The notes below the pieces were generated by a model. The model was given only the letters and a program-made list of their open reading frames with translations, did not search any database and was not told where the DNA came from. The translations under genes were made by a program, and so were the position numbers. A stretch of DNA of 64,000 bases from assembly GCA_905178155.1 (NCBI GenBank), contig CAJINV010000014.1, positions 359,181 to 423,180 of the forward strand. The letters run 5' to 3'. Positions 29,331 through 63,700 of the stretch are shown here, piece after piece. Numbering within the stretch: the first letter of the stretch is position 1; each line of letters starts with the position of its first letter. Source of the DNA: Amoebophrya sp. A120. Taxonomy: Eukaryota; Protista; Dinoflagellata.

Positions 29331-32300
29331 TCAAACATTTCCCCAGGCCTGATCCGTGACCATCGCGTTGAAGCTGCCCACGCAATCCGCGAAGTGGGGC
29401 GACACGTTGGTGCCAACGTCCCGCAAATTGTCCATCATTGCGCGGAGCCCCAATTCCGTCTCCCCGGTTCCACTTACCGTTCCGTGGGCCTGGAAGATTT
29501 GCTGCAGCTGCGCTCGCAGGAGCATCCACTCAGTGACGCCGACGAGGCAGATGGTAGAGCGAATGCGGGTCACATCGTTAGGAATCAGGTTGTCGCCGGT
29601 GTTGCACGGAGTTCCGTCTCCGAGGACGCAGCCGCCCGGAATCTGGAGGTCCAACTCCGTCGCGACGATGGACCGTGGAGTGTTGCTATCCAAGAAAAAA
29701 AAAGCATTCAGTTCTGTAAATCATCCTCTATGGATATTAACATGAAATAAAGACAGCCACACTTGTCAGGGTGGACGTGCTGTCACAGCAGCTTTTCTTG
29801 TCATGCGAACAGAAACAGAATCTGTCCTGCGGTCAGCGTCAGCCGAAGGATTACATTATAAACTGCGCAGTCTTTTTCTTGGATAGGTATCTGGGCCATC
29901 TTCCGGTAAATTATTGGTATCCAATAAGTTCTGCAAATCGGGCTCGTTGCACGCGCATCCTGAATAAAATAACCTCACCCTCCATTTGCATCTTCAAATT
30001 TAACTGATGCAATTCGATATGTCTGTCATAATGCGTGATAGGATACCACAGAGCCATAGCGCGTGACAAGTTGAGACTGATGCGGGCGGGGTGATGGTAA
30101 AATTTTTATTCAGGATATAGGCCCAGACCACAATCCGTCGTGGGCGTGACTGCACTGGTGGCCGTAGTTAGCTTTGCGAGCTGACGCTTGGTTTGTGTTG
30201 GGCGGGGTGGCAGGAGCGGCCTCGCCCGGGCGTTTCGGCATGGGTCGGTCGGCCTTGACGACGCGGTAGCGGTGCCCCGCGCGCAAGCGGCTCTCCGGGG
30301 TGTGCCAAGCTCCACCTGGGCCCCTGTTTCCGGAATGGTAGCCGTCGGACTGCAGGGAATGATACTTGACGCACACTTTGTCATCATTGGCATTTGTAAA
30401 CGAGTCGCGGTCCGCCATTGGAAAAGGAAGCTGCGCGGTTAGCTGGGCGTCAAGCATCAGTTTACGGGGAACCTGCACGGTAAAGAAGTTCCACACCTCG
30501 CCCCTACGAACGTGAAAGACAAACTGGACCCCAGCGAGCGGCGCGGCGGGAGAAAAGTACGTCGCAAGAATGGGGGCGCGGAACGCAAACTCGTACCTGG
30601 CGCCCTCACCAGAGCCCTGTACCCACGGACGCCGGGGTAGCGACCCATCAGTTTGTGGGAACTCAACCGGCTGGCGCAGATTTGCGCTGCCATAAGTGTC
30701 GTCGCCGGAACCTGGTACCCGCTGCCCGACGTCCCGATTACTAAAATAGTCGGTGTCTACCACTTTGACAAGAGCCTCTGGCGCATAGGCGGGGTCAAAA
30801 TCAAACTCGAAGTGGGCTGCTGCGGCAAGCGCCTTCGGCGCAGGCGGTGCTCCAGGTGGCGCAGGCGGTGCTCCAGGTGGCGCAGGCGGTGCTCCAGGTG
30901 GCGCAGGCGGTGCTCCAGGTGGCGCAGGCGGTGCTCCAGGTGGCGCAGGCGGTGCTCCAGGTGGCGCAGGCGGTGCTCCAGGTGGCGCAGGCGGTGCTCC
31001 AGGTGGCGCAGGCGGTGCTCCAGGTGGCGCAGGCGGTGCTCCAGGTGGCGCAGGCGGTGCTCCAGGTGGCGCAGGCGGTGCTCCAGGTGGCGCAGGCGGT
31101 GCTGCGGGTGGCGCAGGCGGTGCTGCGGGTGGCGCAGGCGGTGCTGCGGGTGGCGCAGGCGGTGCTGCGGGTGGCGCAGGCGGTGCTGCGGGTGGCGCAG
31201 GCGGTGCTGCGGGTGGCGCAGGCGGTGCTGCGGGTGGCGCAGGCGGTGCTGCGGGTGGCGCAGGCGGTGCTGCGGGTGGCGCAGGCGGTGCTGCGGGTGG
31301 CGCAGGCGGTGCTGCGGGTGGCGCAGGCGGTGCTGCGGGTGGCGCAGGCGGTGCTGCGGGTGGCGCAGGCGGTGCTGCGGGTGGCGCAGGCGGTGCTGCG
31401 GGTGGCGCAGGCGGTGCTGCGGGTGGCACAGGCGGTGCTGCGGGTGGCGCAGGCGGCGCTGCGGGTGGCACAGGCGGTGCTGCCGGTGGCGGAGGCGGTC
31501 CTCCGGGTGGAGGAGGCGGTCCTCCGGGTGGAGGAGGCGGTCCTCCGGGTGGCGGAGGCGGTCCTCCGGGTGGCGGAGGCGGTCCTCCGGGTGGTGGGGG
31601 CGGTCCGGGTGGCGGAGGCGGTCCGTGCGGCGGATGCGGTCCGGGTGCAGGAGGCGGTCCGGGTGCAGGAGACGGTCCGGGTGCAGGAGACGGCGCAGGT
31701 TCCGGCGGGAGGTCATCTCCGGGATTCAACTGCTGCGGGATAGGCAAGCTGTGAAACGTCCCGTAGGCATTGGCCAACCGTTGCAACTTTTCGTTCTTGA
31801 AATAAGTCGCATGCCCATTCAACACCTCGTCTTCTGTCAAAACCCACACTTCCCGAATGTTCCAAGTCATTCCGTTTGTATCAGTGGCCGGGTAGTGACA
31901 CAGACCCTTGCTTTCCTCGTCCACAGCGCCCGTCTGATAGTCTTTCGTGTGGCACAGGAGCATCTCCGGAATTTCGTTTGGGTTTTTGAAGTAGGTACTA
32001 CTCGGATGGTTTTCCGCGTCGTTCCAAACGGTATAAAACTCCCGCAGTTGCTTATTGGGAAACATCTTCGGAAGGCGCTCCACCATTTTTTCTTGGTTGT
32101 CACCCGGCTCTACTTCGTCGCGACCATCGTCGCTTCTCTGTTGCTCCGCCTGCGCTTGCTGCAGTTGCAGGAACGAAGCCGAAGATCGAGCCGCCGCTGC
32201 ATTTTTTCGCTGAGGTAGGTTCGCTGGTAGTTCAGCCAACGGCCAATCGTCCGATAGCAGTACAGTCCTCTCGCCGCCCCGCTCGTCTGCTGCGATTCTG

Positions 32301-32815
32301 CAGGGCCGGTTCAGCTTTTCCAAGCTGAGGTCCTGACCATTCTCCTCGTACAGGCTCTGCACGGAAACGTTGCAAACCTTACTGGCAGCCAGATTTTCGT
32401 AAGTCTGCCCATCGGATAACACAACCGGGTCGTGGAAACGATTGCTCTCTTCCTGGAGAAACGCATTCAACGACCCAAGGTCCTCCCGGTTCTGCATCGC
32501 GGGAGGGTCGTGAGCTGGTGCCGGGTTGTGAGTCTCATTGCCGGGCGAGTTTTTGTTGTTGTTCGCCACAACAACCACAACCGCGACAACAGCACCAATA
32601 ACGAGGACTGCGGCAATCACGATCAGGGTGATGATAAGCGGTTTATTTTTGGAGCAGCAATTTCTATCATTGGCTTCCGTGGAGCTTCTATGTTCGGGGT
32701 GAAATTCGTGCTGCCCTGTCAAGGCTCTCTCGTGCTCACCCGCCGCAGCCGCATACCCGTTGCGTCCCTCCTGGTGACGGTACGGTGCGGGCACTGTGCG
32801 GTCTCTACGCGTCAT
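29331..32815 (-). CDS. Family member A: TM, 2 U-box-like domains, Pro/Ala stalk, C-terminal Cys-containing domain (1037 aa, 3 exons)
   Basis: First ATG at 32815; TM PLIITLIVIAAVLVIGAVVAVVVVVA; removing two elements makes the C-terminus colinear with the uninterrupted exon of paralogue C. Confidence 0.8.
29687..29885. mobile_element. TIR introner element (degenerate DR)
   Basis: TIR tatccaagaaaaa; removal gives GPDT|TPRSIVATEL vs paralogue GEDTSPKSIIATEL. Confidence 0.8.
29956..30117. mobile_element. TIR introner element (degenerate DR)
   Basis: TIR (c/t)atcctgaataaaa; removal gives WSGP|CNEPDLQN. Confidence 0.8.
30837..31700 (-). repeat. Coding minisatellite, mostly 21-bp units (PPAPPAA / PPAPPGA / PPPPPGG)
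   Basis: Tandem ggtggcgcaggcggtgct(cca/gcg). Confidence 0.97.
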
Positions 32816-34639
32816 AATTGTAGTTGCTCTCTGAAGATTCTGCTGGGTAGAAGTACCAATCACGTAGACACAAATTCAGTGCAAAATCTGTTTGACTCGA
32901 AGAAGCCTTGGGTTCTTTATTAGCTCTATTCCAAAACTAGACGTAGACTTACTTAAGTACACACTCAAAACAAAAATATGAAAAATCGGTTTATCGTAGT
33001 AGCTTCTTTGAATATTTCTTGACGCTGAGGAACAGGATTGCTTCTCTAATAACAGTTCAATATAGATAATTCTGTCGAAAGAGAAGAATATTGTACAAAA
33101 CTAGCAGCAACAGCACTTTTCCAAAAGTTTCTGTAAGATCACATTCACACCAGAAAAAAAATATAGTGCGTGAGATTGATTGCAGTGATTGTTTTTTACT
33201 CGTTTATTGCAGAGCGGTAGATCTTCATTTCGCAAGTGGAAGGATTGTGATCTCACGATCTTCGCTTTTGTTCTTGATCCATGCGTCGTGCACTTGTTCT
33301 TCATGATCATTCTCTATTTACTTCCCTCTCTCTTGATCTTGCAGCGTTTCGATCGACAAATGCTCACACCAGGAGAGGCAATACTTTCAGGCCCGCTTAT
33401 TTAGCGTTGTCTCTCCTGGTGCCGCGATCATTATTATATCTTGATCCGACCACTCTGTTTCTTGATCTCGACCAGCAATTTTATTTTATCGCGAAAACCC
33501 GAGCCCGAGCCTGTCTCGGTTTTGTTCTGTACTTCACCCTGGCCTGTGCTGATTTGGCCGGAGGGTCGTGTTCTTGGAGGAGCAGCCCCGGAGGGTCGTG
33601 TTCTACTTGGAGGAGATCTACTCTCCTGTTTAGTGTTGGCATTAAGACTGTTTTCGCATACAAATCGATAAGAGCTTGAACACGCTTGCCTCCAGCGTCG
33701 TTCCGGGCAGTGGATCGAAGTGTAACTAATAGGATGTGAGTACAAATTCTTTTCACGATGTTCTTTCCTCTTCGTCAAAACAATAGGGTCCTGCTGAACT
33801 GTCTATGCCATGTATACAACACTCCTTCGCATTCACCAAAATCAGACACATCGTACTATCTATAAGTAGGTCATCCAGACCACCTTGTGCTTCTTGGGTA
33901 CAAAACCCACCTCGTTTAGCAAAGCATGCTGTACTTCTTGGGTACAAAACCACACCCGCTGCGTCCCTCCTGGTGACGGTACGGCGCGGCTACTGTGAGG
34001 TCTCTACGTGTCGTAATTGTAATTGCTCTGTGAAATTAGCTTCTGCGGGGTAGTGCCAATCTATCACGTAGACACAAACTCAGTGTAAAATCTGTTCGAC
34101 TCGAAGCCTTGGATTCTTTCTTAGCTCTATTCCAAAACTAGAGCTTGTTTGTTTGTTTGTTCGTTTGTTAGTGCTGGAGTCGTGGTTTCCGTGTGAAGGT
34201 TTTACCTTCCTCTCACGATGCTACTGTTAGTTCAAGAAAAATACTAGGTGGCTACAGCTTTGGCCTCGTAAGCCTGAGAAAAAGATACAGGAGAGCTATT
34301 TTTCGTCACTAGAGAGAGGCTTTTCGAAAGTTACTAAAAACTCGAAGTTGTTGAAAAAGTAAAAGTTTCTTCAACGTAGGAGCTGTTGTTTCTGAAAAAG
34401 TGAAGTCTATATCTGCGAGAAAGGTTGATTTTGTTTCGTGAAAAGAGGTAAGCTACTAAGTTATTCCTGGTGGAACTTGTGTCGACCAGCTGCAAGTCAA
34501 AGCTAGACCTTCTTCTACACACACAAAGCATAAATATGAAATATCGGTTTATCGTAGCAGTTTCTGTAAATATTTTTCGACGCAAAGGAACAGGAGGGCT
34601 TCTCTAATAACAGACTCAAGTAGACGTAGAAACATAAAG

Positions 34640-34932
34640 AAAACCGCGACAACAGCACCGATAACGAGGCCTGCGGCAATCACGATCAGGCTGATGATAA
34701 GCGGTCTATTTTTGGACCAGCAATTTCCATTCTTGGCTTCCGTTGAGCTTCTATTTTCGGGTTCAAATTCCTGCTGCCCTGTCAAGGCCCTCTCGCCCTC
34801 TTCACCCGCCGCAGCCACACCATACCCGCTGCGTCCCTCCTGGAGACGGTGCGGCGCGGTGACTGTGAGGTCTCTACGCGTCATAATTGTACTTGCTCTG
34901 TGAAGTAGATTCTGCGTGGTAGTACCAATCAC
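34640..34932 (-). pseudogene. Truncated family copy (N-terminus and TM only)
   Basis: Matches the 5' end of genes A/B up to VIGAVVAV, then runs into duplicated upstream sequence; may encode a short protein. Confidence 0.65.
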
Positions 34933-36642
34933 GTAGACACAAACTCAGTGCAAAATCCATTCGACTCGAAGCCTTGGATTGTTCTTTATTAGCTCTAATA
35001 TTCCAATAAAACTAGACCTTCTACACACTCAAAACACAAATATGAAAAATCGGTTTATCGTAGCAGCTTCTTGTTTCTCGACGCAGAGGAACAGGATGGC
35101 TTCTCTAATACAGACTCACGTAGAAAGTAGATAAAGAAAAAAATCAATAAAACATATTGTACAACAAAACTAACTAGCAGCAACAGCACTTTTCCATCAA
35201 TTCCTGTAAAAACTAAAATCACATTCACACCGGTAGGAAAAAAAAACAGTGCGTGGAATTGCAGTGATCGTTGTTTTTCACTCGTTTATTCTTGCAAAGC
35301 GGTAGGTTTTGATCCCGGAAGCGGACCAATTGTGATCGGTCGTGTTCTTGGAGGACCTTGCGCAGCAAGATCAAGATCTATTCTCCTGTTTAGTGCTGGC
35401 ATTAAGACTGTTTCCGCATACAAACCGATAAGAACTTGAACACGCTTGCCTCCAGCGTCATTCCGGGCAGGGAAACTGCTAATTTGGATTCAAGTGCAAC
35501 TAATAGGATGTAGTGAGTACAAATTCTTTTCATGATGTTCTTTCCTCTTCTTCAAAACAATAGGGTCCTGCTGAACTGTCTATGCCATGTATACAACACT
35601 CCTTCGCATTCACCAAAATCAGAAACATCGTACTTCGAGATTGTTTTCTCGTAGACCACCACCACGAAATCCCTACTGCAGGGATGTTTGTTGTCCAAAG
35701 CTGAGAGCTTGCTCAAAACGTCTCACCGCAGGGTGCGACTTTGTAGCGAAGCATCACAATAATCATCGGCTGACTTAGTCTCCCCGGCCGATAGCGTTAC
35801 TTCTTGTCCAACACTTAGAAAAGATTTAAGTGCACAGCAATGTTTCAAATAAAATAAGATCATCCATACATCATACAGCTGCAATACATCCAAAACAGTT
35901 GCAACAATAAGATCATCATACATCCAAAACAGTTGTAAATAATCTCTCCTTTCAGAACGGTATACAGATACATAATCGGTGGCTGCGGTAGCTATGAGGC
36001 GCATTCAACCATGTTACATAACGCACAAACATGAAGAACGCGCTCTTCGCTGTCTTGGGCACAAACTACGTCTTTCCTTTCGATTGCGATTCTAGTACTT
36101 AAATCAAGTGCATCACAGTCCTCCTTTTCATCATGTTGGTTTTGTCCCGGCCTGGAGATATCACTTACTTAGCTGTACATGTACTGCTTCTGATTCATTG
36201 GAGCGGAACCGCCCGCGGCCCCTGTGATATCCTGATTTTCCTGCACCTATTAGAATGAAGAGGCACAGACAGGCATAGCACTGATTTGCTGCTGTCTAAA
36301 ATAAAATCATACACGTCGCAAGACACAACAGTACAACTTTTGAAAACACTCTCGAAAATCAAAATAGACCCTGAAAGAATTATTTAGATGCAGTACTTGA
36401 GTCTGGAGTTGGTTTCGTCTAAGCCAAAAAGTTCTGAAATCTTCTAACGATTTGCAAAGCATCCCACTCACGACGGCGTCGTCGTGTCGGGCCGATATAA
36501 AAATGTGGCAGTGAAATAGTAATAGCAGCAATCTTGGTAGAAGAAATGCTGCGATAGAAGCGCAAGCTGATCTAGTACTAGTTGTGGTTCCTATATCATC
36601 TTCTATGGGTTCATCTCTTCATCAACATGCGTGGTAAATTTC

Positions 36643-38597
36643 TTAACGAAAAGCACCTCCAAAAGCGCCTCCAATAGTGCCTCCATGAACAGGCGAAGGC
36701 ATATGTCCTCCGTTCCCAAAATGGATATTCCCAGGATTGACATGCACGGCACCAGCACCACCGTTAGCACCTCCGGGGGGAGGAGCGACGTGGACGCCAC
36801 CACTAGGAGTGATATTCACCACACCAGCACCACCGGTAGCACCTCCGGGGGCAGCGACGTGGACGCCACCACTAGGATTGATATTCACCACACCAGCACC
36901 ACCGGTAGCACCTCCGGGGGCAGCGACGTGGACGCCACCACTAGGAGTGATATTCGCCACACCACCAGTACCACCGTTAGCACCTCCGGGGGCAGCGGCG
37001 TGGACGCCACCACTAGGAGTGATATTCGCCACACCACCAGCAGCACCATTAGTGCCCCCATTGTTTCCATCGCCGCCCGGCCGGGGGAACGGGGAAGGAA
37101 CAAGAGGCAGCACAGGAATATCCTCTCTAGGGACAGGCTGCGTCGGGGGCACGGCCATGTTGTGGAAGGTCCTGTAGGCATTCGCCAACTGTTGCAGCGT
37201 TTCGTTCATGAAATAAACCGGACTAGTATTTTTAGCTAGCAGCTCCTGCTCCTCTTCCGTCAACAACCAGACTTCCGGCATGTTCCACGTCCTTCCCTCA
37301 GTGTCGATCGCCGGGTATCTGCACAAAGCCTTGCTGTTCGCGACCACAAAGCCGGTCTCGAGGTGCTTCGTCTCACACAGAAGCACCTCGGGAATGTTGT
37401 TTGAGTCTTGGAAGTGAGTACTGGGATGCCCCTCGGCGTCGTTCCAGGCAGTGTAAAAGGCTTGTAGGTTGTGATTGGGAAACATCTTCGGGACCCGTTT
37501 CACTACCGTTTTCTCTGTGCTAGCATCTTCGTCTTGATGTTGGTCCCGCGCCGCAGTCGGCTCGTGATCCTCTTTATGCTGGCGCACTCGGGGAAGAAAC
37601 GAAGCAGTGGCTCCTTCTACCTTCGTTTCCTGATGTTGCACCACCGCAGCTGCTGCACTTCTGTGCGGTATCTGGTCCATGTCCACCGGCCAAAGAGCAA
37701 TTCTCCCGTCTATCGAGAGGAAATAAAACTGTCTCAGGTTTTTTCAAACTTCTATATTTGCGCAGGAACTCGTCCTTCTATGGTGCAGCGGCTTTTCTTT
37801 TTTTCTAGTTATTATGTTGGAGATGCAACTAGAAGGCCTCGGGTGGTCGTAGTACTTACTCTTCATACGTCGTGCTCGTGCCTCTACCTGTTGCAGCTGT
37901 TTGAAAAATTCGAAATCGAAACACGACCCTTTCTTGTGTTGCTGAGTCGATTTCGATCTGTGAAAATAAGGCTGAGACAGTTAAATGCTTTCCCTGCCAT
38001 ACTTTCGGGGCCGTCAGGTTGACCTCCGTCATGATCATCCCCCCCAATCGTGCAGCGGTTGAGTTTCTCCAGATTCAGCTCGCCACTCTCATCGCGCAAA
38101 CTCTGCAGCTCGACGTCGCACAGCTTTTCCGCCTTCTTATTTTCGTACGTTTGCCCATCGGATAACACAACCGGTTCGTGGAAACGATTGCTCTCGTCCT
38201 GGAGAAACGCATTAAGCGACCCGAGGTCCTCCCGGTTCTGCATCGCGGGGGGATCATTTTCTGGTTGAACTTCGTCATTACTGTTGTTCACCATAACAAC
38301 CACAACCGCGATGACCACACCGATAATGACGACTGCGGCGAGCACGATCAGGGTGATCACCAGCGGTTTATTCATCGAGCAAGAAGATTTTTTCTTCGAG
38401 ACAGGAGCTTCCTCTTCTTGGACTTCGAGTTCAGGCTCGTTATCCAAAAAAGCATCTCCTTCGCCCCCAGCAGCAATTTTGTCAGCATGACGAAAATAGT
38501 ACGACCCTTGGTCGTGCTCCTGCAGCTGCCGGCTAGGCGGCGGAGGTGCAGCGATCCCCGCCGCACGACGGTCAATAGTGGTGTTGTGAGACGACAT
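36643..38597 (-). CDS. Family member D: TM, 2 U-box-like domains, Gly-rich 23-aa repeats, no C-terminal domain (552 aa)
   Basis: ORFs 37884..38597 and 36643..37686 join across element 37711-38001 (GPE|RRIALWPV). Confidence 0.75.
36745..37050 (-). repeat. Coding repeat, about 69-bp units (GGAGVVNITPSGGVHVAAPGGAT)
   Basis: About 4 tandem copies. Confidence 0.9.
37711..38001. mobile_element. TIR introner element (degenerate)
   Basis: tat...ggaaa...aactgtctcag at both ends; DR ccgtc/ctttc. Confidence 0.72.
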
Positions 38598-40373
38598 TCT
38601 TGATGATGATGATGTCGGTTTGTAGTTTTTTTTTTTGGAAATGGTGAAAAAAATTGATGAAGGTACTACAGTTCTAGAGAGTTGTACTTCTACAGAATGG
38701 CAAATACAACAAAGCGGTCAGGAGAAGGTAGGTGTACTTAGGAACAAGAACCCCTGCACACAAGATGAGATTTATCATGTAGTAGACACAGGCACAGCAA
38801 CGTCCTCGGCCGAAAAAATCAAGATTCAGTTTTTTTTTCCAAACGCACTCGGACCACGACGGGTGGACAATTTTCATAAATTTACAAACATATTAAATGC
38901 GTAAAAGCTTACTTTGATCATATCTATGGTTATGGGATCGTCATCGAAATCGCGGCACATCTACATTTTCGCTAGCCCAGTACTTCTTTATGCTCTACTT
39001 GTGCTTCGGTTTCTTTTTTGATATGTTATCATTTCAATAGATCTTCACGACGGCGCTGACCTCTCTTTATCCGCTTCAGATCGACGATCGCTGTTATGAT
39101 CTTGTGTTCTTCCTGCATCGTGGCTGCACTACGAGGAGGACTTCTGGACTTTTCGACAGTTGCACAACCCCTGGTCGTGTTGTGCTTTTTGCCTTTGTTG
39201 ATATGTAATCCGTTTTTTCATCTGGAGCTTCCAGCTCACTTTCAGTTTGACAGCGGATCTTGTCGTAGTTGTTCCGAACATCAAGCAACAAAAACAATTT
39301 TCGCCAACATAATGGACCCGAGCGGGGACGAGGAAAAGAAACCATAAAAATTTTACTTTTTTCAAAACAAGACTTTATTTCATTCCGGGTCAAATGCGGG
39401 AGGTCGAGACTTTATTTCATTCCGTGTCTATGTATAATGGTGCATACGCTCTCTCGATCATTCGGATTTCCGAACAATTGGTATGTTGTGCTTTACATCA
39501 TGAGTAGTTTTCTGATTGTGCGCCACTATGTATGTTTCATGTCTACTATGAAGATCAAGATGTATGTGTAGTACTGTCTGTCTACTATAATACTGCTCGA
39601 TTGTACACGACGTGACGCAGCTTTGCTCTCATCTTCTCACCACCCCTGTGATTGCGGTGGCATAGTATTTTTTTTTCAGATGATTATACAGTAGTTATGC
39701 TGGATGTAGTATGTTGTAGCGATTTTTTCCATTTTCCAAGCGTAGCGATTAAATTTTCCGCGATTAACTTTTCCATGCTATTAAAGTACATCCTTTCTAG
39801 TAAATTTTCCACGGGGACGGGCGGGCGCAAGAGTTCTCCAGGTGTTTGTGGTGTTGTTCTATCTTGACAACAATCAAATAACACAAGGGTTAGTAGTCCA
39901 GGGAGTTCAAAACTCGACTCAGAGAAGACGACGCGCTAGGGGTGCGTGGCAATGGGCAAACTTATGAATGTTGAATCGTTGAGTGCCTTACCCAACAACT
40001 GACTGGAGCAATTATAAATGAGTTGTAAAACTAAAGAATTATACACGAAGAACCTTGATAACTATACACGAAGAAACTTGATAGTAGAAAAGTACATGCT
40101 GTAGTGGAGTGACTCTGACCCAAAACTGTACCGCCCATTCTCACTTTCAAAACAAGTAAAACTCCTGCGCCGAAAAGAACTACTCGCCGCACTTCCCAAC
40201 TCTAGCTCAATCGAGTCGGAGGGCCCGCTATACAGGTAGGTCGTCCAGACCCCCTTTTCGTTTTTAGGAAAACAAAGCGATAGGAGTTGAAGTTGTTGTG
40301 CCCTGTGGATGTGCTACGTCTTGTTAAAAACATACCGCCAAGATATTTTTAGTTTTGCTTTTCAATATACTAC

Positions 40374-43978
<3,605 letters not shown>

Positions 43979-45342
43979 AATTGTAGTTGCTCTCTGAAGA
44001 TTCTGCTGGGTAGAAGTACCAATCACGTAGACACAAATTCAGTGCAAAATCTGTTTGACTCGAAGAAGCCTTGGGTTCTTTATTAGCTCTATTCCAAAAC
44101 TAGACGTAGACTTACTTAAGTACACACTCAAAACAAAAATATGAAAAATCGGTTTATCGTAGTAGCTTCTTTGAATATTTCTTGACGCTGAGGAACAGGA
44201 TTGCTTCTCTAATAACAGTTCAATATAGATAATTCTGTCGAAAGAGAAGAATATTGTACAAAACTAGCAGCAACAGCACTTTTCCAAAAGTTCCTGTAAG
44301 ATCACATTCACACCAGAAAAAAATATAGTGCGTGAGATTGCAGTGATTGTTTTTTACTCGTTTTTATTGCAGAGCGGTAGATCTTCATTTCGCAAGTGGA
44401 AGGATTGTGATCTCACGATCTTCGCTTTTGTTCTTGAACCATGCGTCGTGCACTTGTTCTTCATGAGCATCCACTATTTACTTCCCTCTCTCTTGATCTT
44501 GCAGCGTCTCGATCGACAAATGCTGATGCTCGCACCAGGAGAGGCAATACTTGGAGGCCCGCTTATTTAGCGTTGTCTCTCGTCCTGGTGCCGTGATCAT
44601 TATATCTCGATCCTACCACTCTGTTTCCTGATCTCGACCAGCAATTTTATTTTATCGTGAAAACCCGGCCCCGAGCCTGAGTCGGTTTTGTTCTGTACGT
44701 CACCCTGGCCTGTGCTGATTTGGCCGGCGGGTCGTGGTGTTCTTGGAGGAGCTTGCACAGCAAGATCAAGATCTATTCTCCTGTTCAGTGTTGACATTAA
44801 GACTGTTTTCGCATACAAATCAATAAGAGCTTGAACACGCTTGCCTCCAGCGTCGTTCCGGGCAGGGAAACTGCTAATTTGGATTCAAGTGCAACTAATA
44901 GGATGTGAGTACAAATTCTTTTCATGATGTTCTCTCCTCTACTAGGGTCCTGCTGGCGATGTATATAACACTCCTTCGCATTCACCAAAATGAAAATCAG
45001 ACACATCGTACTATCTATAAGTAGGTCATCCAGACCACCTTGTGTTTCTTGGGTACAAAACCCACCTCGTTTAGCAAAACATGTTGTACTTCTTGGGTAC
45101 AAAACAAAGAAATCCCTCGCTAAGCAAGCACTAAATACTTACTTTACTCCTGCGCTACACAATAAGTCTTGATTTGACCAAACAGCAACATCAATAAGCA
45201 TTGTGTCGTGGGGAGTGGTTCTAATTCTAAAATATGACCTCACTACATAAAAGAAATCGGAGCTGTTTTTGCGTGGTATGAATATCACCTACTACTTGTC
45301 GTTTGTGAAATACAGTACGACCTCCGTAGTTTTCTCTTTAGA

Positions 45343-46164
45343 ACTCAAACATTTCCCCAGGTCTGATCCCTGACCATCGCGTTGAAGCTGCCCACACAAT
45401 CCGCGAAGTGGGGCGACACGTTGTTGCGGACGTCCCACAGATTGTCCACCAGTGCGCGGAGCCCCAAGTCTGTCTATCAAGTGCAAAAGTGCTTGGGTCT
45501 GGAAAGGTGTAGACTTGTCACGCAGATTTTCCATGACCCATGAGGCCTGGAATGCGGGACTTAGCATGACAGAATCTGCGAGGTCTCTGCCATGCCTAGT
45601 ATCCTGCATGAGAAACTCCCTTCCACCTTGGTCAAAAGTGTGCCGCTTTTGGCACTCATGCAACACGGATTTTTGCATGCTTCAGATTTACAACCATGAC
45701 AAATTGCAATCTTCCAGACCCTGACCCAGAGATTTTTGCAATTCATACCGTCTCCCCGGTTCCAACATTCACCGCTCCGTGGGCCTGGAAGATATGGTGC
45801 AGCTGCGCTCGCAGCAGCATCCACTCGGTGACGCCGACGAGGCAGATGGTAGAGCGGATGCGGGTCACATCGTTAGGAATTAGGTTGTCACCGGTGTCGC
45901 ACGGAGTTCCTTCCCCGAGGACGCAGCCGCCCGGAATCTGGAGGTCCAACTGCGTCGCGACGAGTGACCGTGGAGGGTGATGATAAGCGGTTTATCTTTG
46001 GATTTTCTATTCTTGGCTTCCGTGGAGCTTCTATATTCGGGGTGAAATTCGTGCTGCCCTGTCAAGACCCTCTCGCCCTCACCCACCGCAGCCGCACCAT
46101 ACCCGCTGCGTCCCTCCTGGTGACGGTGCGGCGCGGTGACTGTGAGCAGGTCTCTACGCGTCAT
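45343..46164 (-). pseudogene. Internally deleted family copy
   Basis: N-terminal sequence (KPLIITL) fused out of frame near 45970 to the last-exon sequence. Confidence 0.7.
45475..45747. mobile_element. TIR introner element, main family, absent from three paralogous sites
   Basis: TIR; DR ctgtc/ccgtc; empty sites near 29456, 40499 and 48867. Confidence 0.93.
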
Positions 46165-46811: not shown

Positions 46812-47101
46812 AAAACCGCGACAACAGCACCGATAACGAGGCCTGCGGCAATCACGATCAGGGTGACGATAAGCGGTTTATTTTTGGACCAGCAATTTCC
46901 ATTCTTAGCTTCCGTGGAGCTTCTATTTTCGGGTTGAAATTCCTGCTGCCCTGTCAAGGCCCTCTCGCCCTCATTCGCCGCAGCCGCATACCCGCTGCGT
47001 CCCTCCTCTTGACGGTACGGCGCGGTGACTGTGCGGTCTTTACGCGTCATAATTGTAATTGCTCTGTGAAGTTGTAGAGTCTGCGGGGTAGTACCAATCA
47101 C
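46812..47101 (-). pseudogene. Truncated family copy (duplicate of 34640-34932)
   Basis: Same breakpoint and read-through peptide FFMFLRLLES. Confidence 0.65.
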
Positions 47102-48741
47102 GTAGACACAAACTCAGTGCAAAATCCATTCGACTCGAAGCCTGCTTAGATTGTTCTTTAGTAGCTCTATTCCAATAAAACTAGACCTTCTGCACACTCA
47201 AAACACAAATACCTATGAAAAATCGGTTTATCGTAGCAGCTTCTCTAAATGTTTCTCGACGCAGAGGAACAGGATGGCTTCTCTAATACAGACTCACGTA
47301 GAAAGTGGATAAAGAAAAAAATCAAAAAAATATTGTACAACAAAACTAGCAGCAACTTCCATCAATTCCTGTAAAACTAAAATCACATTCACACCGGTAG
47401 GAGAAAAAAAAAGTGCGTGGAATTGCAGTGATCATTGTTTTTCACTCGTTTATTCTTGCAGAGCGGTAGGTTTTGATCCCGGAAGCGGAACAATTGGGAC
47501 TTTTCGACAGTTGCACAACCCCTGGTCGTGTTGTGCTTTTTGCCTTTGTTGATCTGTGATCCGTTTTTTCATCTGGAGCTTCCAGCTCACTTTCAGTTTA
47601 AGAGCGGATCTTGTGGTAGTTGTTGCGAACATCAAGCAACAAAAACATTTTTCGCCAACATAATGGACCCCAACGGGGACGAGGAAAATAAATGGATGGA
47701 ATTCTTACTTTTTTCAAAACATCAAGACTTTATTTCATTTCGGGTCTCGCGGGAGGTCGAGCTCCCAAAATAACTGTCTATCTATGGTGCATGCGCTCTC
47801 TCGATCGTTCAGATTTCCGAACAATTGGTATGTTGTGCTCTACATCATGGATAGTTTTCTGATTGTGCGCCACTATGTATGTTTCATGTCTACTATGAAG
47901 ATCAAGATGTATGTCTATGTGTATCTTGCTACTATAATACTGCTCGATTGTACATGACGTGACACAGCTTTGCTTTCATCTTCTCACCACCCCTGTGATT
48001 GCTATGGCATTGTTTTTTTTTTTCAGATGATACAGTAGTTTGTTATGCTGGATGTAGTATGCTGTAGCGATTCCATTTTCCAAGCGTATCGATTAAATTT
48101 TCCACGATTAACTTTTCCATGCTATTAAAGTACATCCTTTCTAGTAAATTTTCCACGAGGACGGGCGGGCGCAAGAGTTCTCCAAGTGTTTGTGGTGTTG
48201 TTGACAACAATCAAACACAAGGGCTAGTAGTCCAGGGAGTTCAAAACTCGTAGAACTCGCCTAAGAAAAGAGGACGTGCTAGTGTTGCGTGGCAATGGGC
48301 AAACTTATGAATGTTGAATCGATGAAGGACTCACCCAACAACTGACTGGAGGAATATATGAGTAAAGCTGAAGAATTATACACGAATGATGATGATTAGT
48401 TCGAGCTGGGCTCGGCACACGCACAATCATACACGAATAAAGTTGATAATACATGAAAAATACGTGCTGCTGTAGTGGAGTGACTCTGACCCAAAACTGT
48501 ACCGCTCATTCTCACTTTCAAAACAAGTAAAACTCCTGCGCCGAAAAGAACTACTGGCCGCACTTCCTAACTCTAGCTCAATCGAGTCGGAGGGCCCGTT
48601 ATACAGGTAGGTCGTCCAGACCCGCTTTTCGTTTTAGCAAAACAAAGAAATAGGAGTAACTCCCTTGAAGTTTTTGTGCCCTGTTGATGTACTACGTCTT
48701 GTACTTAAAATACCGCCAAGATATTAGTTTTATACTACAAC

Positions 48742-51570
48742 TCAAACGTTCCCCCAGTCCTGATCCCTGACCATCGCGTTGAAACTGCCGACGCAATCCG
48801 CGAAGTGGGGCGACACGTTGGTGCCAACATCCCGTAAATTCTCCATCAGTGCGCGGAGCCCCAATTCCGTCTCCCAGGTTCCCATATTCACCAATCCGTG
48901 GGCAAGGAAAATTTGCTGCAGCTGCGCCCGCAGGCGCTTCCACTCGTTGACGCCGACGAGGCAGATGGTGGAGCGGATGCGGGTCACATCGTTAGGAATC
49001 AGGTTGTCGCCGGTGTTGCACGGAGTTCCGTCTCCGAGGACGCAGCCGCCCGGGGTGGTGATGTCAAGTTCCGTCGCGATGATGGACTTCGGCGACGTGT
49101 CCTCGCCGGTGGCCCGTAAATTGTCGAGGTCCCAGACGTTCTGCAGATCGGGCTCGTTGCAACCATGACCATTAGACCACTTGCCATCGTGGGCAAAGCT
49201 GCAGCGCTCACCATAGTCAGCGTCCCGCGCCTCCGCCCGGTTTGTGTCGGGCGGGGTGGGCGAGCGTGTCGGCATCGGGCGGTCGGCTTTGACAACGCGG
49301 TAGCGGTGTCCGGCACGCAGGCTGTTCGCGGGCGTGTGCCAGGCACGATTCGGGCCGTCGTTCCCGGAGTGGAGGCCGTCCGAATGCAGAGGCTGATACT
49401 TGACGCAAACGTTGTCGCCTTGAGCACCGGCTCTGAGCGGTTGCCGAGCCCGAGGATCATTTATCGCGGCCTCGTGAATTAAGCCAGCCGGAATCTGCAC
49501 GGTAAAAAAATTCCACACTGATCCGATGCGCAGATTGAAAACGAAGTGAGGCCCGGCGAACAATTGCATCGGGTCGTACGTCGAGACTATGGGGGCACGG
49601 AAGAAAAACTTGTACGGAAAGGGACTCAAATGGGGCTCTTTCTGAGTCCACGGAACCGGCTGCCCATCAACGGCAGTGACCTGCGTGAAGGAAGTCGACG
49701 ATTTTCATTTTCGTCTTCGTGGCAGAATTTGCATTTCGCAATTCGAGTTTCTTTGTCGGATACTCGTCAGACATAAATCGTTCCAAACAAAGGGCTGCAA
49801 GAGACGGTAGACACTCGACCGATGCGCTGGCAATTACTTAATGGCTGAAGAGTTACTATTGGTACATACTAGAAGCTATGTATCATGCATCTTTGGCCTT
49901 GTCGCCCAATCCGAATTTTCTGGGGGTTCACGCTGAGTGCAACAATACCCACTTTGCACGACTATGACTTCTGTACGCAAAAAGAATGAAAAGGGTACCG
50001 GCTGGCGCAAGCTCGTGCTTCCAAAAGTGGGCCCAGCAAGGGAAGCCAGACTGTCTTGCAGCACCTCTACAAGAATCTCCGGTTCGTGGTTGGCGTCAAA
50101 ACGAAACTCGAAGTGGGTTGCTGCAGCAAGTGCCTTTGGCGCAGGCGGTACGGATGACGCAGACGTTGCGGCTGGCGTAGCCGGTGCGGTAGGCGTAGCC
50201 GGTGCGGTTGGCGTAGCCGGTGCGGTTGGCGTAGCCGGTGCGGTTGGCGTAGCCGCTGCGGGTGGTGTAGACGGTGCGGTTGGCGTAGCCGGTGCGGTTG
50301 GCGTAGCCGGTGCGGTTGGAGTAGCCGGTGCCGTTGGCGTAGCCGGCGCGGTTGGCGTAGCCGGCGCGGTTGGCGTAGCCGGTGCGGTTGGCGTAGCCGG
50401 TGCCGTTGGCGTAGCCGGCGCGGTTGGCGCAGGGGGCCCCTGCGGGAGGTCATCTCCGGGATTCAATTGCGGCGGGATAGGCAAGCTGTGAAACGTCGCG
50501 TAGGCAATGGTCAACCGTTGCAACTTTTTGTTCTTGACAAAAGTCGCATGTCCATTCAACACCTCGCCTTCTGTCAAAACCCACACTCCCGGAATGTTCC
50601 AAGTAATTCCGTTTGTATCAGTGGCCGGGTAGTGGCACAGACCCTTGCTTTCCTCGTCCACAGCGCCCGTCTGATAGTCTTTCGTGTGGCACAGAAGCAT
50701 CTCCGGCATTTCGTTGGGGTTTTGGAAGTAGGAACTACTCGGGTGATGCTCCGCGTCGTTCCAGGCGGTGTAAAACTCCTGCAGTTGCTTATTGGGAAAC
50801 ATCTTCGGAAGACGCTCCACCGTTTGGTCGTCAACTTCTTCCGCTGGGCCGTCTCTCTTATCCTGTTGTTCCGCCAGCGCTTGCTGCGATTGCAGAAACG
50901 AAGACCGGGCCGCCGCTGCACCTTTTCGCTGCGCCAGGCTCGCCGGTAGTTCAGCCATCGGCCAATCGCCCGATAGCACCACAGTCCTCTCGCCACCCCG
51001 CTCGTCGGCCGCAATTCTGCAGGGCCGGTTCAGCTTTTCCAAGCTGAGGTCCTCACCATTCTCCTCGTACAGACTCTGCACGGAAACGTTGCAAACCTTC
51101 CGCGCAGCCTGCTTTTCGTAAGTCTGCCCATCGGATAACACAACCGGTTCGTGGAAGCGGTTTTTTTCGTCCTGGAGAAAGGCATTCAGCGACCCGAGGT
51201 CCTCCCGGTTCTGCATCGCGGGGGGATTATTTTCATGTTGAACTTCGTCATTCGTCTTACTGTTGTTCAGCATGACAACCACAACCGCGATGACCACACC
51301 GATAATGACGACTGCGGCGAGCACGATCAGGGTGATCACAAGCGGTTTATTCAGCGAGCAAGAAGATTTTTTCTTCGAGAAAGGAGCTTCCTCTTCTTGG
51401 ACGTCGCGTTCAGGCTCGTTATCAAAAAAAGCATCTCCTTCGCCCCCAGCTGCAATTTTGTCCGCATGACGAAAATAGTACGACCCTTGGTGCTGCTGCA
51501 GCTGCCGGCTAGGCGGCGGAGGTGCGACCCCCGCCGCACGACGGTCAATAGTGGCGTTGTGGGACGACAT
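48742..51570 (-). CDS. Family member C (836 aa, 2 exons) with short PATPTA stalk
   Basis: ATG at 51570; canonical intron 49681-49998 (CAGCCG|gtaccc...cacgcag|GTC). Confidence 0.8.
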
Positions 51571-51940
51571 TCTTTTGATGATGTCGGTTTGTGTAAGTAG
51601 TTTTTTTTTTGGAAGTGGTGAAAAAAATTGATGAAGATACAGTTTTAGAGAGAACTTTGTACTTCTGCAGAATAGCAAATCCAAAGCAGTCAGAAGCTAG
51701 TTGTACTTCGGCGCAAGAACCCCTGCACACAAGGTGATATTGATCATGTAGTAGACACAGCAACGCCCTCGGCCAAAAAAATCAAGATCTCATTTTTTTT
51801 CGAAACGCACTCGGACCACGAACAGTGGACACAATTTTTCATAAATTTACAAATATAAATGCGTCGTATGGTTGTGGGATCAGCCTCGTGAAAAAAATTT
51901 CGCTAGCCTATTTCTTTTGCTCCACTTCGTTTTCTTTGGT

Positions 51941-52965
51941 TACAGGATTTGGGTCGCCCTAAAGGGCGACCCCTTGGTGGCCGGTCCTAGGAGTCTGGAC
52001 CGGAACGAATGAAAGCAGGTAGGGCGATGCCGAAAATGTTGGGAGAAAGAGAGACCGCAAGAAGGGGGGCGCGCCTCAAAGTAATAGGCTAACCGATACC
52101 GCAAGGGGAGGGCGCGAAAAGATTCCAGGCGGGCCGCTTGCTTCCGAGCGGGCCGGCCGTCTTACTCACCTAGACGACCGCCCCATCCGGCGTTGGTAGC
52201 CGGCTTGTGCCCGGGCTTTGTTGGTTCCCAAGCCAACCCGTCGCCTGCGCCCAGGCTTTACTGTTTCGTTGCTATACCACGGGCCACGGGGTTCGTACCA
52301 ACCTCGGACGGGCGACAAAGGAGCGAACCATCGGCCGGCGGCCTTCGGCCGCCCAAAAGGGCAAAGAAAGGGGCGTGGCCGCAAACATGAAGCCGGGCGG
52401 AACAGAAGAGGCAGGGGCCTCTTGGATGTTTGCCGGCCGGCAAGTTCCTAGCGCAAGCGACCCTTCGGCCGGCGGCCTTTGGCCGCTCCACTTGGCAGGG
52501 GCAAGGCAACGCAATACATCAAGCCCAGGGCGGCAAGCTCCTGCTAGCGCACAGCAGCCCGCAGGCACCAGCAGCGGCCCCCTCCGCTAGAAGCAAACAG
52601 AGCGGAGGCACTTCCCCCAATGTGACGCGGGTGCGCGGATTGTTCCGCCCTTTCTCCCCCCTTAGTTGTTGGCCTGCCATAACGTCGTTGTTGGTTGTGG
52701 TGGGTCGTGGCCTTCGGGGACTCCGCCTCAAGTCCCAGGGGGGGGTCCAGGGGGGGGCAACCCCCCGGGGGTCCCCCCCCCTTTGGCCCCCCCCTGGGGG
52801 GGGGACCCCCCCCCCTGCCAGGAGCGGATTCCCTACTTTTTGTCCGGTCCAGATTTCCGGATTCCTTTTCGGCCATTATTGTACTTTTAATCATGTAATC
52901 GCGTTGATCTCGTCCATCATTTGATTTTTTGGCGTTCTGTTCTTTCTGTCCTTTCACAAGCGAGA
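51941..52965. mobile_element. GC-rich insertion of about 1 kb with hairpins and G/C runs (ends approximate)
   Basis: Flanks resemble the nearly contiguous paralogous sequence at about 38980-39100; hairpin gggtcgccct-aa-agggcgaccc at 51951. Confidence 0.55.
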
Positions 52966-54769
52966 TCACGTTAATGATTTCTTTTTATCCACCGCTTCAA
53001 ATTCACCTCGACGATCGCTGTTATGATCGCTTGTATTCTACTTCTTGCATCGTGGCTGCACGACGAGGACTTCTGGATTTTTCGACAGTTGCACAACCCC
53101 GGGTGTTGTGCTTTTTGCTTTTATTGATCTGTGATCTGTTTCATCTGGAGCTTGCAACTCACTTTGTTCAATTTCAGGAGCGGACCTAAGAACTACAAGC
53201 GTGTCCTCCCTGTTAGTTCGCTGTGTTGCTGCTGACAGACTGGTGCCTTAGAGTCTTCATTTTCTGGGAAACAGGACAAATATCATGTTGTGCCTGCTTT
53301 TATTCGCCAACACCATACGATACATAGATGATGCTTTATTCTTGCAAAACGACAAGTTATCATTTTCCGGGTTGCGGGTGGTCCAGAACTGTCTAGGTAG
53401 AAATAATTTGCTTCAGCACATGATTCACAATCACCTCCTCGCGACTAAACCTTGCCTCCCGGTTGGAAATAGTTCGAAAACATTTTCGAACTACTCGACC
53501 ATCATGTCCATCATGCTCTAACTAGCTGCACACCTGCCTAGAAAAAAGTGCAGTTAAAACAAGTGAAGCGTTCCATTTCTAGGTGCTTTTGATTTTTTTC
53601 ACATATTTTTTCTACACACATGTATAAGTAGTTTTTTGATCGAAATAAAACTTGGCGATCATCATCTTCTGGAATTCGACCGAGCCTCACGTGAGCAGCT
53701 CCTGAAGATAGCAGATGATATTCATCTCCTTGTTTAGTGCAAACGCAATACAACACCTTCTCTTCAGAGGACTTCGGTACTATTTCCAAGTTCGAAATGG
53801 AAAAGGTGGCCCACAACTAATTTCAAGTACTTCCGAAAGTAGGTACTTAGCGCTGCAGTGTTGCAGCCCCTCCTGTAATCGAACAAGAAATTTCTAACTA
53901 TCACTGCTCGCGCTTTTGCTTTTAGTTTTCGAGGTCGAAATAAATACATTGTACACGTAGGGCTTGGACGTTGTTCTTCTATCTTGATATAACAAATATA
54001 AAATTATCCACGTAGGGCTGAAAAAGAAAAACGCGAAAGTTGTTGTACAGCTTATGTTCAGTTAGGAGAAGGTGATGTCTCGCCAAAGCTTAAATTTCTG
54101 GCGGAAGTAGCGGTGAAGAGATAAAAAAATACACGACACAATCACAACAATCTGCTCCACTGGTGTAGGCTCATCACGACGGTCCTTCGCCTCTATCTTC
54201 CTCTCTTACATCAACAAGTTCCATAAGCTTCACTAGTTCTTGTGCTTTAATACGAGTTATGTTTACCGAAGTAGATGTCCGCATACTAGTTGGACCAAAT
54301 AAAACAAACTTCGATCGAGAGAGATAAAAGTGCTGCCGGCGATCTCTTCATGTTAGCACCCATACTTCTGCACCAACGATGGAGCTAGATTTCATACATA
54401 GTTGTGCCAACATTCTAGAACTGGTGATGATATTGGTACTACTAATACGGTGTATCAAGAGATAACTAACACTCGATATTTGCGTCCATTATCCACTGTG
54501 TCAAAACTATAGGAAAAACCAGATCAAAAGTAATAAACCCATTGAATCTCCTCGAGGGTCAGCGCGCGCCCTCCTGTCCAGCCGCCCAAGAACTTCTTTG
54601 GACGTGGTCGTTGAAAAGCTTCAAGAGTAGTTGTGCCGACTTGTTGTCAGCATATCTGTCGTCCTTTGCAGCCATTCTTGGAAATTCTTGCGCACAGAGG
54701 AATCTTCGTGCTACTGCTAGTTCCGGAGAGGTAATATCAACCTGAGATGATCCCCGCAAGCGCGGCATC

Positions 54770-60700: not shown

Positions 60701-63700
60701 TAGCCCTCTCCTGGAGGATTATATTTTCAACGTAACGTTGAAAATGCCATGGCAATTCGTTTTGCTGGTTTTGGTTTTGCTGCCGATGTCCTACTGCTAC
60801 TTCCTCTTGGCGTTGTTCGTGGTCCTCCGCCCAACGCTTTTTCCTGTTCGATAGTGAGTTTTGTTCTTTTGCTTGAGGTAAAGCCAGACCTTTGTAGTCG
60901 CAGTGGGTCACAAGGCGGTCCTCGTTGTCGCCGTCGGAAGTGGTTGCCGCGCGGAGTTGTCCTGAGGCAGTGTCGCGCAAGAAAAGTTTGTAGCCAACGT
61001 CCAGCAGGATATTAGATTTCTTTGTGTTCGGTACTGCAGCTGTAGAGCTTGGTGTTCCACCAACATCAACAACCGCTCGGCTGACCGGGGCCGAAGAAGA
61101 AGAAGAAGAAGAAGAAGACGTGGCGGCACGAGGACCGGAAGAACTTAAGCTGGCTTCTTCCTGAGCCTCTTCCGGCATGGGCGCAGGCAGGTAAATGAGC
61201 TCCGGGATTATAGAAGTTGCATCTTCGATGATTTGCTGGTCGGGGGCCGAAGGACCTGCTGATAGTGCCTCTGCGGAAATCTGTGGCTCGGAAGTGGCTA
61301 CTTGCTCTTCGGGACGAGCAGCGCTGGCAGCTACGAGCCGCTGAACAGAGCTGACCCAGTCACCTGTGACCTGGTAGAGGTTCACGTCCACTCCCAACAC
61401 CAAGGCCGCCGCAACCCACAACTCGGTGGGCTCCAAGAATCCCCCGGGCAGGGTAGCGCCGTACTCCGCCACCTCTCTCTTGCGCCAAGCTATGCCTCCG
61501 CTGCCATTTTCTGGCGACGCCATCACCTGGTCCGACACAGAAAGGTAACACAAGTAGTCGCGCGCCGCTTGATCGAGCGCGGGTCCGGGGAGGCACCAGG
61601 AAATGTTTTGCGCCACTCCTCTGTCGATTGTCGCACGGTAGGCTCTCTGATCCCGCAAAAGAGCTCCACGAGGCAGCGAACCTGTTCGTCCGGCAGGGCC
61701 CGCCTCCACCGCATTGATAGTGTCATCGTCCCCTGCGGGGTCGTTTGTTCCTGCAGTCGTCCCGTTATCTTGTTCCTCGCCAAGATCATTGGCACGGCCA
61801 AAAAACGGATTGACGCGCCTGTGCACTGCCGTGTACATGCTGATGGGGCCCTCGTTCAGTATTTCGCCGTTCACTAGCAGGCCCGTGGCTTTCAGCCTTC
61901 TGCTCGTCCTCGCCAGTGCAGGTGCGGCGGTGGAGTTATCCTCGTCGTCCGGACCGGCCAGCAAAATCATCGCCACGGCATATGCCAGTCGTTTGCGAAA
62001 CTCGCTGACGTCTGTGAAAGTATGAGCTAGATTTGCGCCTGGCAGCTGCCCAATCCTCTGCCTCGAGAATCCTTCACACCACTCCTTGTGCGCACCTTCG
62101 AAGCACTGCTGCGCCAACGCGATCAGAGCATTGTCTGCAGAGCCGAGCGGGGCGCTGCTCTGCAGGTAAGGAGAGCTACCAACTTGCACAGGTTGATGTG
62201 CCGGGGGCGCAAGACCGCTGCCACCCGCCCCGGCTGCTGCACTAGGGACACTTGCTGTGCCAGTGGACCCTGTTGTGCCGCTGGTGCCTCCAGCAGCTCC
62301 GGGCGGGACAACCTCACTGCTGCTTTGGCTAGCGATAAGATTCATCGCTCCTTGCCCAGTCGAACCCGGCACCATGCTCGCTCCGGTGCTAGTACCAGAA
62401 GAGGCTGCAACAGCTGCGCCAGCTCCCTGGCTGCTACCGCTGCTGGTCTGGTGTGGGGCGGCAGGGATGCGGTTTCCTTGCGCGTCCGTGCGAACCATCG
62501 CATTGAAACTGCCCACGCAGTCCGCAAAGTGCGGCGAGACGCGAGAGCTCAAGTCACCCAAATTATGCATCGCAAATATCTTCATGTCAGGGTCTAGGTT
62601 GATTTGTGATGCAAGATTTCGAAGAGAAGGGAGGTCTGTGATGCATGCAGAAGCATGGCGAGATTTTCTGTCGAGCAGGGACGGGCAGCCACTTTTTGCT
62701 CCTGCATGTGTGTTACGAGTACGTAGAATGAATGCGTACAAAGGCAATAGAAACTTCTCAAGAACTACATGGCTAATATGCTCTACTCATGCCGTACACG
62801 AAACCACTTCGATAGGTGGTTTCGTTTCAGCAACACAAATTTTTCGCATTTCGTCCCCAGACCATGACCACCCACGCACATTTGCATTTCCATTTGATAG
62901 ATATGGTCCTTCAACATATCTATTTGCAGGCGCAGTCGGTTCTCCGGGTCCGGCGCGTCGTCCTCCGGAATTGGAAGACTATGCTGATCGAAAACCTCAA
63001 TCAAATATCTCCGGAGGCGGTGCCACTCGTTGACCCCCACCAGGCAAATCGTCGAGCGGATCCGGTTGAAAACGTGAGCTTCCCGCGAATACCTAATCAA
63101 ATTGTCGCCCGTCTGGCACCGCGTTTCTACCTCGCGTTCGCCCGGAGCAGCGTGCCGGTCTTCCACGCAGGCCGTATAATTGTAGTCCATTTGCAGCTCC
63201 GTTTCCACAATCGACTGGGGTGAGGTGTCAGCGTTCACGTCGGCGAACCCATCAATGTCCATCAGATTTTGCAAGTCCGGCTCGTTGCAATCCCCCGACC
63301 ACTTGCCATTGTGCGCATGTGACCTATGGAGGCGTCGTTGTGGAAATTCGCGAGGTCTGAATGCAAAACTGCATAGCATACAACACGTAGAGTGTCTGCG
63401 TTGCCCCTTGGAGGCCGCAACCGAGGGTGATTGTTCATCTCCCGTCCAAACTCATGCGCAAGGACGAGAAGGACGGTGCTAAATAGCATGACAGATTGAC
63501 TTTTATTGCCCGCGCCTGGAAAGTCTCTCGCTGTCTGTTTGGATATTGCCTGGTTTATGGTAAGTATTGGTCATTCTAATTGATTTTTACGCATTACAAA
63601 TGCTACTTTCAGCTCTGTCGATTTCCAAGGTGACGCCTCCATACGAGCACCGTCTTCCGTAGTCTGGATCGAGGGGCGACCACCGGGTCGTGTCCGGCGC

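Follow-up and report, generated by a model that had tools for sequence, protein, structure and literature searches.

This report concerns a window of 64,000 nucleotides (nt) from Amoebophrya sp. A120, that is, the whole stretch analysed here (positions 359,181 to 423,180 of contig CAJINV010000014.1), and the short elements that interrupt its genes. The 64-kb window holds at least 24 of these elements, which start with TAT, end with ATA, have inverted ends and carry 5-nt direct repeats at their borders. They are about 150-350 nt long, with a single exception of 1.7 kb. Seven of them interrupt a gene that we call D/E (54832..63725, minus strand), which lies under spliced contigs and has a stop-free frame of at least 2230 residues once its seven introns are removed. 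Two more lie in a gene A, with paralogous copies in a gene B. The minus-strand stretches 29337-33000, 40380-44000, 48742-51696 and 62400-63725 encode a tandem family of proteins in which a Cys-containing domain at the C-terminus is common (it reads CNEPDL...[15 protein letters not shown]). In members A, B and C the N-terminus has a hydrophobic segment, and there are long repeats of Pro/Ala/Thr; the positions of the elements vary among the paralogs.

For all counts we dropped gene B's two copies of the gene A elements, which leaves 22 distinct elements. Fifteen of these were found by requiring the TAT/ATA motif, and only the seven introns found through RNA form an unbiased set. Every element is oriented on the minus strand, on the basis of spliced contigs at 54.8-63.7 kb and of long open frames at 10-13, 22-26 and 29-41 kb; the orientation of four elements below 3 kb is assumed. 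The 5-nt direct repeat exceeds chance: at the true offset there are nine perfect flanking repeats, whereas 15 shifted offsets gave 0-2 each, with a mean of 0.4. Identical repeats flank 11 of the 22 elements. All four bases occur at each of the five repeat positions, in agreement with an earlier reading of this DNA from its letters alone (the original prediction), according to which the repeats share no fixed base. The 5' arms show TAT in 22/22 elements and are A-rich at +12..+15, in line with the A120 introner pattern of TAT, about seven variable bases and at least three A. Near-identical arms recur inside the window, and the arms of the seven RNA-supported introns are dissimilar to one another. 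An Rfam scan of the window gave 0 matches.

Transcript junctions and paralogs

Ten sequencing runs were listed for 55800-64000, and four were compared with 50450-64000. X1 and X2 are contig runs from one sample, probably RNA (the nature of X1-X4 is guessed throughout), with 21 and 59 contigs, respectively, matched to 50450-64000. Such contigs reveal the major product only, and all junctions are confined to a single gene on one strand, in one sample. Two raw-read RNA runs, X8 and X9, gave 0 of 3,295,382 and 0 of 3,074,630 records matching 50450-64000; they are probably from another strain.

We write k for how many bases of the transcript-upstream repeat are kept, the remaining 5-k coming from the other copy. 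The contigs contain seven junctions in the minus-strand gene D/E, every one at a TAT...ATA element, and the spliced contigs of these runs guessed to be RNA lack each of the seven complete elements recognised between 54.8 and 63.7 kb. Six junctions were reported as joints irrespective of the motif, while the seventh was derived from the coordinates given in the record of a contig of 4205 nt. The sole junction that fixes the cuts exactly belongs to the intron at 56312..56660 (element 56316-56659), whose repeats are alike at 0/5 positions: the joint 56311>56661, present in X1 and X2, allows no sliding and places the cuts one base before TAT and four after ATA, that is, k=4. Such an exact junction despite wholly different repeats excludes repeat identity or pairing as a requirement, as had been predicted. 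The other minus-strand introns are 55876..56210 (element 55880-56209; k 4 or 5; junction inferred from contig record coordinates), 57557..57832 (element 57561-57831, whose 3' arm ends ATG, a U.G wobble; k 3 or 4; X1 and X2), 59517..59862 (element 59521-59861; k 3, 4 or 5; X1 and X2), 62560..62900 (element 62564-62899, terminal pairs not predicted; k 3 or 4; X1 only) and 63321..63644 (element 63325-63643; k 2, 3 or 4; X1 only). The joints of the last two are flagged "between: not known". The joint 57068>57360 was first taken as a canonical GT-AG intron, an assignment that we rejected because it is an element with identical repeats: the intron at 57071..57361 (element 57075-57360) is compatible with any k and slides to a false GT-AG at k=1.

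Only k=4 fits all six informative junctions. If k were chosen at random, the probability that six junctions fit k=4 would be P=0.0015, and P=0.0078 for any common k; for the three informative joints that are unflagged and in both runs it is 1/6 x 2/6 x 3/6 = 0.028. The mirror register, k=1, is ruled out at 6/6 informative junctions. All seven junctions then have TAT at +2..+4 and AT[A/G] at -7..-5. The rebuilt mRNA has 4205 nt, the same as the contig, and is stop-free, which checks the total length removed and not the register; the removed length is not divisible by three in four of the seven introns. We are highly confident that one major register, N-TAT...ATA-NNNN, applies to these introns. 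This is the register originally predicted from five elements with diverged 5-mers (29687-29885, 29956-30117, 41072-41247, 56316-56659 and 63325-63643), all of which lie where they had been placed, with the 5-mers described. RNA support exists for two of these five and for five elements that had not been named, and two of the three mRNAs foreseen, those at 56316 (GGC CTG ATT) and 63325 (TGC TCA CAT), are seen in the contigs.

Genes A, B and D were also translated at each k and compared with paralogs lacking an intron at the given site. A D-T pair (paralogs: EDTS, ADTS) requires k of at least 4, the Cys of CNEPDL requires k of at most 4, and C-S at 63325 requires k of at least 2; D-T and C-NEPDL are each present in both of the paralogs without these introns, C and D. 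Together these residues are kept by k=4 alone, and a 4+1 register is thus predicted from paralog conservation at 29687, 29956 and 41072. The introns so predicted, all on the minus strand, are 29683..29886 in gene A (element 29687-29885, source of the D-T limit, with a stem extendable by one C-G pair), 29952..30118 in gene A (element 29956-30117, source of the Cys limit, with a 3' arm ending ATG), and in gene B the paralogous copies of these two, 40726..41002 and 41068..41248 (element 41072-41247 for the latter). The reference is the intronless C-terminal frame of gene C (48742..49704, minus), with EDTS and GCNEPDL. These three legs of the earlier argument stand. A fourth, G-L at 56316, would also require k of at least 4, and is weak: no conserved G-L was found in the window, where the only equivalent repeat is RYVLL. 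When gene C was searched against longer proteins for homologs, no significant match appeared among 1605 candidates, and a Pfam search with gene C gave no match. Gene C consists of two long frames (48742-49704 and 49876-51696), and the gap at 49650-49880 (minus) probably holds an intron that is not of the TAT...ATA type.

The cut and its catalyst

We think that the cuts are likely set by TAT/ATA at the hairpin foot and made by a modified spliceosome that needs neither an initial G nor a final AG, and we give this reading as a whole an even chance. In such a scenario, an element resembling a MITE (a miniature transposable element with inverted repeats) would insert and duplicate 5 nt (the repeat is seen, the transposition presumed). 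Its inverted ends are predicted to pair in the pre-mRNA and would draw the splice sites together. The 5' cut would put the T and A of the element at intron positions +2 and +3, like a GUA donor, and the 3' cut would fall four bases beyond ATA, both as in the contigs. The element plus 5 nt would be removed exactly, as observed, so that the reading frame is recovered whatever the target site, and nothing holds the two repeats alike. The catalyst would be a U6/Prp8-type core, the hairpin replacing the undetected U1.

That the catalyst is spliceosomal at all is about an even proposition, and a relaxed spliceosome is our narrow favourite over an endonuclease-ligase system because U at +2 and A at +3 recall GUA donors. 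These two bases are present in 7/7 RNA-supported introns at k=4. The five GT-AG donors of a neighbouring MPN-domain gene, hand-placed and mostly by eye, are all GTA. A repeat of the form NNAGG yields a formal GT-AG intron at k=4 in two of the 22 elements (920 and 24153; P=0.046 at 1/64), and with these two GT-AG cases the set as a whole does not have GT/GC...AG ends. U1 is reported as undetected in strains A25 and A120 (PMC7789003), and it is present in strain Kv, which has canonical introns (PMC12005148). In A25, all nine main splice sites of Table S4 start with TT and have varied ends (PMC7789003); since the A25 inverted repeats start with TTA (PMC7789003), these sites fit the same +2/+3 bases. 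A further observation concerns the 3' end. In all elements ATA-N resembles a TAG acceptor; were the 3' cut to fall one base past ATA with the 5' cut in its usual place, the mRNA would gain a codon in frame, a minor product that would be invisible in contigs.

The same register could also result from a protein endonuclease making a staggered cut at the TAT:ATA helix end (with a 3-nt 3' overhang on the hairpin), followed by a ligase joining the exons, for which IRE1 and tRNA splicing are precedents. We regard this hypothesis as rather unlikely. It accommodates the free terminal bases and the lack of a branch signal, as well as the terminal stem predicted in six of the seven RNA-supported introns, and it has a close architectural parallel in Euglena, where paired motifs at fixed offsets go with a proposed non-spliceosomal route producing circular introns (PMC12501133). 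However, it explains neither U/A at +2/+3 nor why U1 is reported as missing from precisely these strains. Folds of the elements showed no common flank structure by eye, no dedicated bulge-helix-bulge search having been made.

A number of points weigh against the reading that we favour. As regards the register, two joints carry the "not known" flag and one junction is inferred, the RNA evidence has the narrow scope given above with minor products hidden, and the published A120 splice-site tables (discussed below) are not independent support, because a model of sliding reproduces them better than k=4 throughout. As regards the motif, the invariance of TAT/ATA could reflect a need of the transposase, and for most of the elements this motif was the search criterion. 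As regards the spliceosome, with six possible registers U at +2 would arise by coincidence about once in six, and a 10-30 bp stem across +2..+15 would mask the bases with which U6 must pair. Three branch-like patterns showed no sense-strand excess (5 vs 5, 11 vs 10 and 12 vs 16). The first and last intron bases are unrestricted, with a G-G or A-C pair in only 4/22 elements, and spliceosomes depend on a first-last base pair (PMC13326754).

The original prediction also held that the cuts are measured from the stem end, at -1 and +4, by a ruler blind to sequence. Its rejection of repeat identity survives, as said, and the ruler itself now seems improbable. In its favour, the pairs +2:-5, +3:-6 and +4:-7 are intact in 22/22 elements, two of them with U.G pairing: where ATA has changed, it has become ATG in both cases and a U.G pair is kept. 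Against it, the three pairs are never swapped, so that no compensatory change is seen in 22 elements, and TAT and AT[A/G] are the only invariant positions, a pattern repeated in the seven RNA-found introns; the next pairs, +5, +6, +7 and +8, have mismatches in 7, 6, 2 and 10 of 22. Repeat bases lengthen the stem by one pair in four of the 22 elements, with a predicted probability of 0.93-0.99 for three of them, and a ruler that followed the extended stem at 29687, 40730 and 10642 would shift the frame: if both cuts move out by one base, the conserved C-terminus of genes A and B falls from 138 to 55 residues, and the frame at 10642 from 1121 to 951. This argument is one of reading frame only; +1:-4 is unpaired in 7/7 RNA-supported introns, so that the junctions do not probe stem extension directly. 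Finally, the 62564 intron is removed although RNAfold, at each of four flank sizes, gives its TAT:ATA pairs a probability of 0.00; in the six remaining RNA-supported introns the predicted probabilities of the +3 and +4 pairs are 0.55-1.00. The invariant TAT/ATA, the diverging inner pairs, the cut that stays in place by the frame argument and the 62564 intron together favour anchoring on the TAT/ATA bases; we consider it probable that these bases, and not the end of the stem, anchor the cut, assisted by pairing.

Published splice sites and the rest of the window

The text of PMC7789003 describes the sites of A120 introners as variable relative to the hairpin, calls the border unknown and places the inverted repeats at a distance of 1-5 nt. 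It also notes that the most frequent A120 repeat is found four bases away on the upstream side and no more than two away on the downstream side, so that the comparison proposed with the original prediction comes close in position, although the source states no rule. In Dataset S2 of PMC12130899, the A120 families in the 32 rows compared here, of 58, have mixed mechanisms, duplication lengths of 2-6 and no common register.

It might be argued from such data that the register differs among introns or families and that its agreement in gene D/E is fortuitous, and the calling of sites as variable in PMC7789003 and the published family counts, with 46% AG or AC ends against 12% under k=4 throughout, lean that way. 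We think this very unlikely, given the chance of 0.0015-0.0078 computed above and the agreement of seven introns with dissimilar arms. Moreover, the published counts are recovered by a model in which repeats slide to the placement that partially matches GT-AG best. In the largest A120 family among those rows, of 3852 introns, the 5' ends gt/at/gc/ga have frequencies of 0.26/0.17/0.05/0.06 and the 3' ends ag/ac of 0.26/0.20 (PMC12130899); a model with k=4 for all gives 0.25/0.25/0/0 and 0.06/0.06, and the sliding model, applied to identical repeats, gives 0.30/0.14/0.07/0.05 and 0.30/0.16. We had initially cited Table S4, in which all nine main A120 sites start with NT, as independent support. 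This was withdrawn, since the sliding model gives six of the nine pairs among its top nine non-canonical ones. The published A120 spectrum neither supports nor refutes the rule. It may largely reflect placement by software, and we infer that the annotation worked in this manner. Canonical introns with inverted repeats amount to 15% in A120 (PMC7789003), and the published canonical counts may include many identical-repeat introners slid to a false GT-AG, like 57071-57361.

That the junctions are not splicing at all is hardly credible: hairpins with flanking repeats are classic template-switch substrates and would suit reverse-transcriptase jumps, and X1 and X2, guessed as they are to be RNA, might hold DNA without the elements, yet the 56316 junction has no microhomology, the reading frame requires removal of the elements, there are 0 differences in the exon matches, 51806-53161 has a depth of zero, and X1 covers 0.68 of the words of 55800-64000, near the exon share of about 0.69, where X5 and X6 cover 0.99.

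The remaining elements are read on the minus strand as well. Six lie in one gene region, 22111..26604: 22115-22393, 22573-22781, 23448-23698, 23745-24067, 24153-24431 (GT-AG at k=4) and 24913-26603. In a frame test across the elements, 23448 was ambiguous. The last of the six is the 1.7-kb element, with intact ends, identical repeats and an interior of tandem arrays (23-nt and 106-nt units). Two elements, 10642-10903 and 13527-13803, lie in a stop-free frame of 1121 residues (10638..13804). Four more, of assumed strand, lie at 916..2989: 920-1226 (GT-AG at k=4), 2161-2423, 2469-2619 and 2725-2988. A further intron is predicted in a gene fragment at 45471..45748 (element 45475-45747), where the repeats differ at position 4. 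Another element, of the family of 23745-24067, starts at 63726 and runs past the window end, and 63725 is the point at which the X1 contig departs from the sequence of the window. Within 14184-15465, inverted repeats and a small hairpin element (14337-14442) border a run of N left by the assembly, possibly as a larger mobile element.

The MPN/JAB-domain gene mentioned above (17750-19838, minus; 347 residues and five GT-AG introns in a hand-built model) has a weak match to Pfam PF01398, and we take it to be eIF3f-like. One of its hand-placed GT-AG introns, 18053-18195 (minus), starts GTAT, ends ATC-CCAG and holds GCATGA-type internal repeats of the elements; it is possibly an old introner made canonical. 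A short gene at 7570-7810 (minus), apparently intronless, has some likeness to ribosomal protein L30.

Significance and known systems

Between 60 and 65% of A25 and A120 introns are without GT-AG, and their mode of removal has been open since 2021 (PMC7789003). Literature searches, subscription papers apart, found no statement of a fixed register for Amoebophrya, and the passages concerned of PMC12621601 and PMC13149111 do not mention Amoebophrya. The fixed register, with likely anchoring on +2 U and +3 A, appears new. It provides a defined, mutable substrate and predicts where a branch point or a nuclease cut must lie; with it, annotations can be re-registered, 57075 and other false GT-AG calls among them; and it explains how a transposon can enter coding sequence at any 5-mer with no change to the protein. 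Amoebophrya would also join euglenids and Fritillaria as a lineage whose splice code is hairpin-based, its geometry being different.

One may speculate further, and we do so tentatively, with the odds rather against us. Tens of thousands of "variable-border" Amoebophrya introns might obey a single code, N-UA...UA-NNNN, in which A25 (TTA...TAA, predicted 3-nt duplication) and A120 (N-TAT...ATA, 5-nt) share the pairs +2:-5 and +3:-6. A spliceosome lacking U1 would then read the helix end instead of GU/AG, any palindromic transposon ending in TA would be a harmless intron wherever it landed, and much of the published diversity of splice sites would be an alignment artefact.

Judged by sequence, the elements of the window match the published A120 introners and are thus of a known kind. 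They share with them the TAT inverted ends, the roughly seven variable bases and the A run, as well as direct repeats of 3-5 nt, RNA-supported removal and a similar length (PMC7789003). The difference is that the text of PMC7789003, whose figures may show a 1/4 peak, gives variable borders, whereas one register fits all junctions here. The introners of the Micromonas/Aureococcus type resemble those of the window in that the element gives the donor T, the duplication gives the first base and the 3' end, and the length of the mRNA is unchanged overall; these need a target G or AG, whereas the window elements splice at any 5-mer (PMC9860276, PMC12130899).

The nonconventional introns of Euglena share a MITE-like origin, paired ends and free terminal dinucleotides, and their offsets are likewise fixed, having been resolved by discarding "slidable" introns (PMC12501133, PMC11170887). 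In the window, paired ends at fixed offsets from the cuts are predicted for six of the seven RNA-supported introns. The Euglena signature is N3CDG...CH'GN5-6|R, with the motif at +4 and a 3' spacer of 5-6 nt (PMC12501133), as against TAT at +2 and a 4-nt spacer here. The window elements do not show this signature, and only 15 of 22 have a purine as the first base of the following exon.

Finally, the introns of Fritillaria borealis share a transposon origin, inverted ends and target duplications (PMC11282704, PMC13326754). They prefer the ends AG-AC and AG-AT, have isosteric terminal pairs in at least 55% of cases and occur with a conserved U1 (PMC11282704, PMC13326754), unlike the window elements, whose ends are free except for the +2 U and whose host strain, like A25, has no detected U1. 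Nevertheless, the Fritillaria introns are removed by an altered U2-type spliceosome (PMC11282704, PMC13326754), which is a precedent for the catalyst that we favour.

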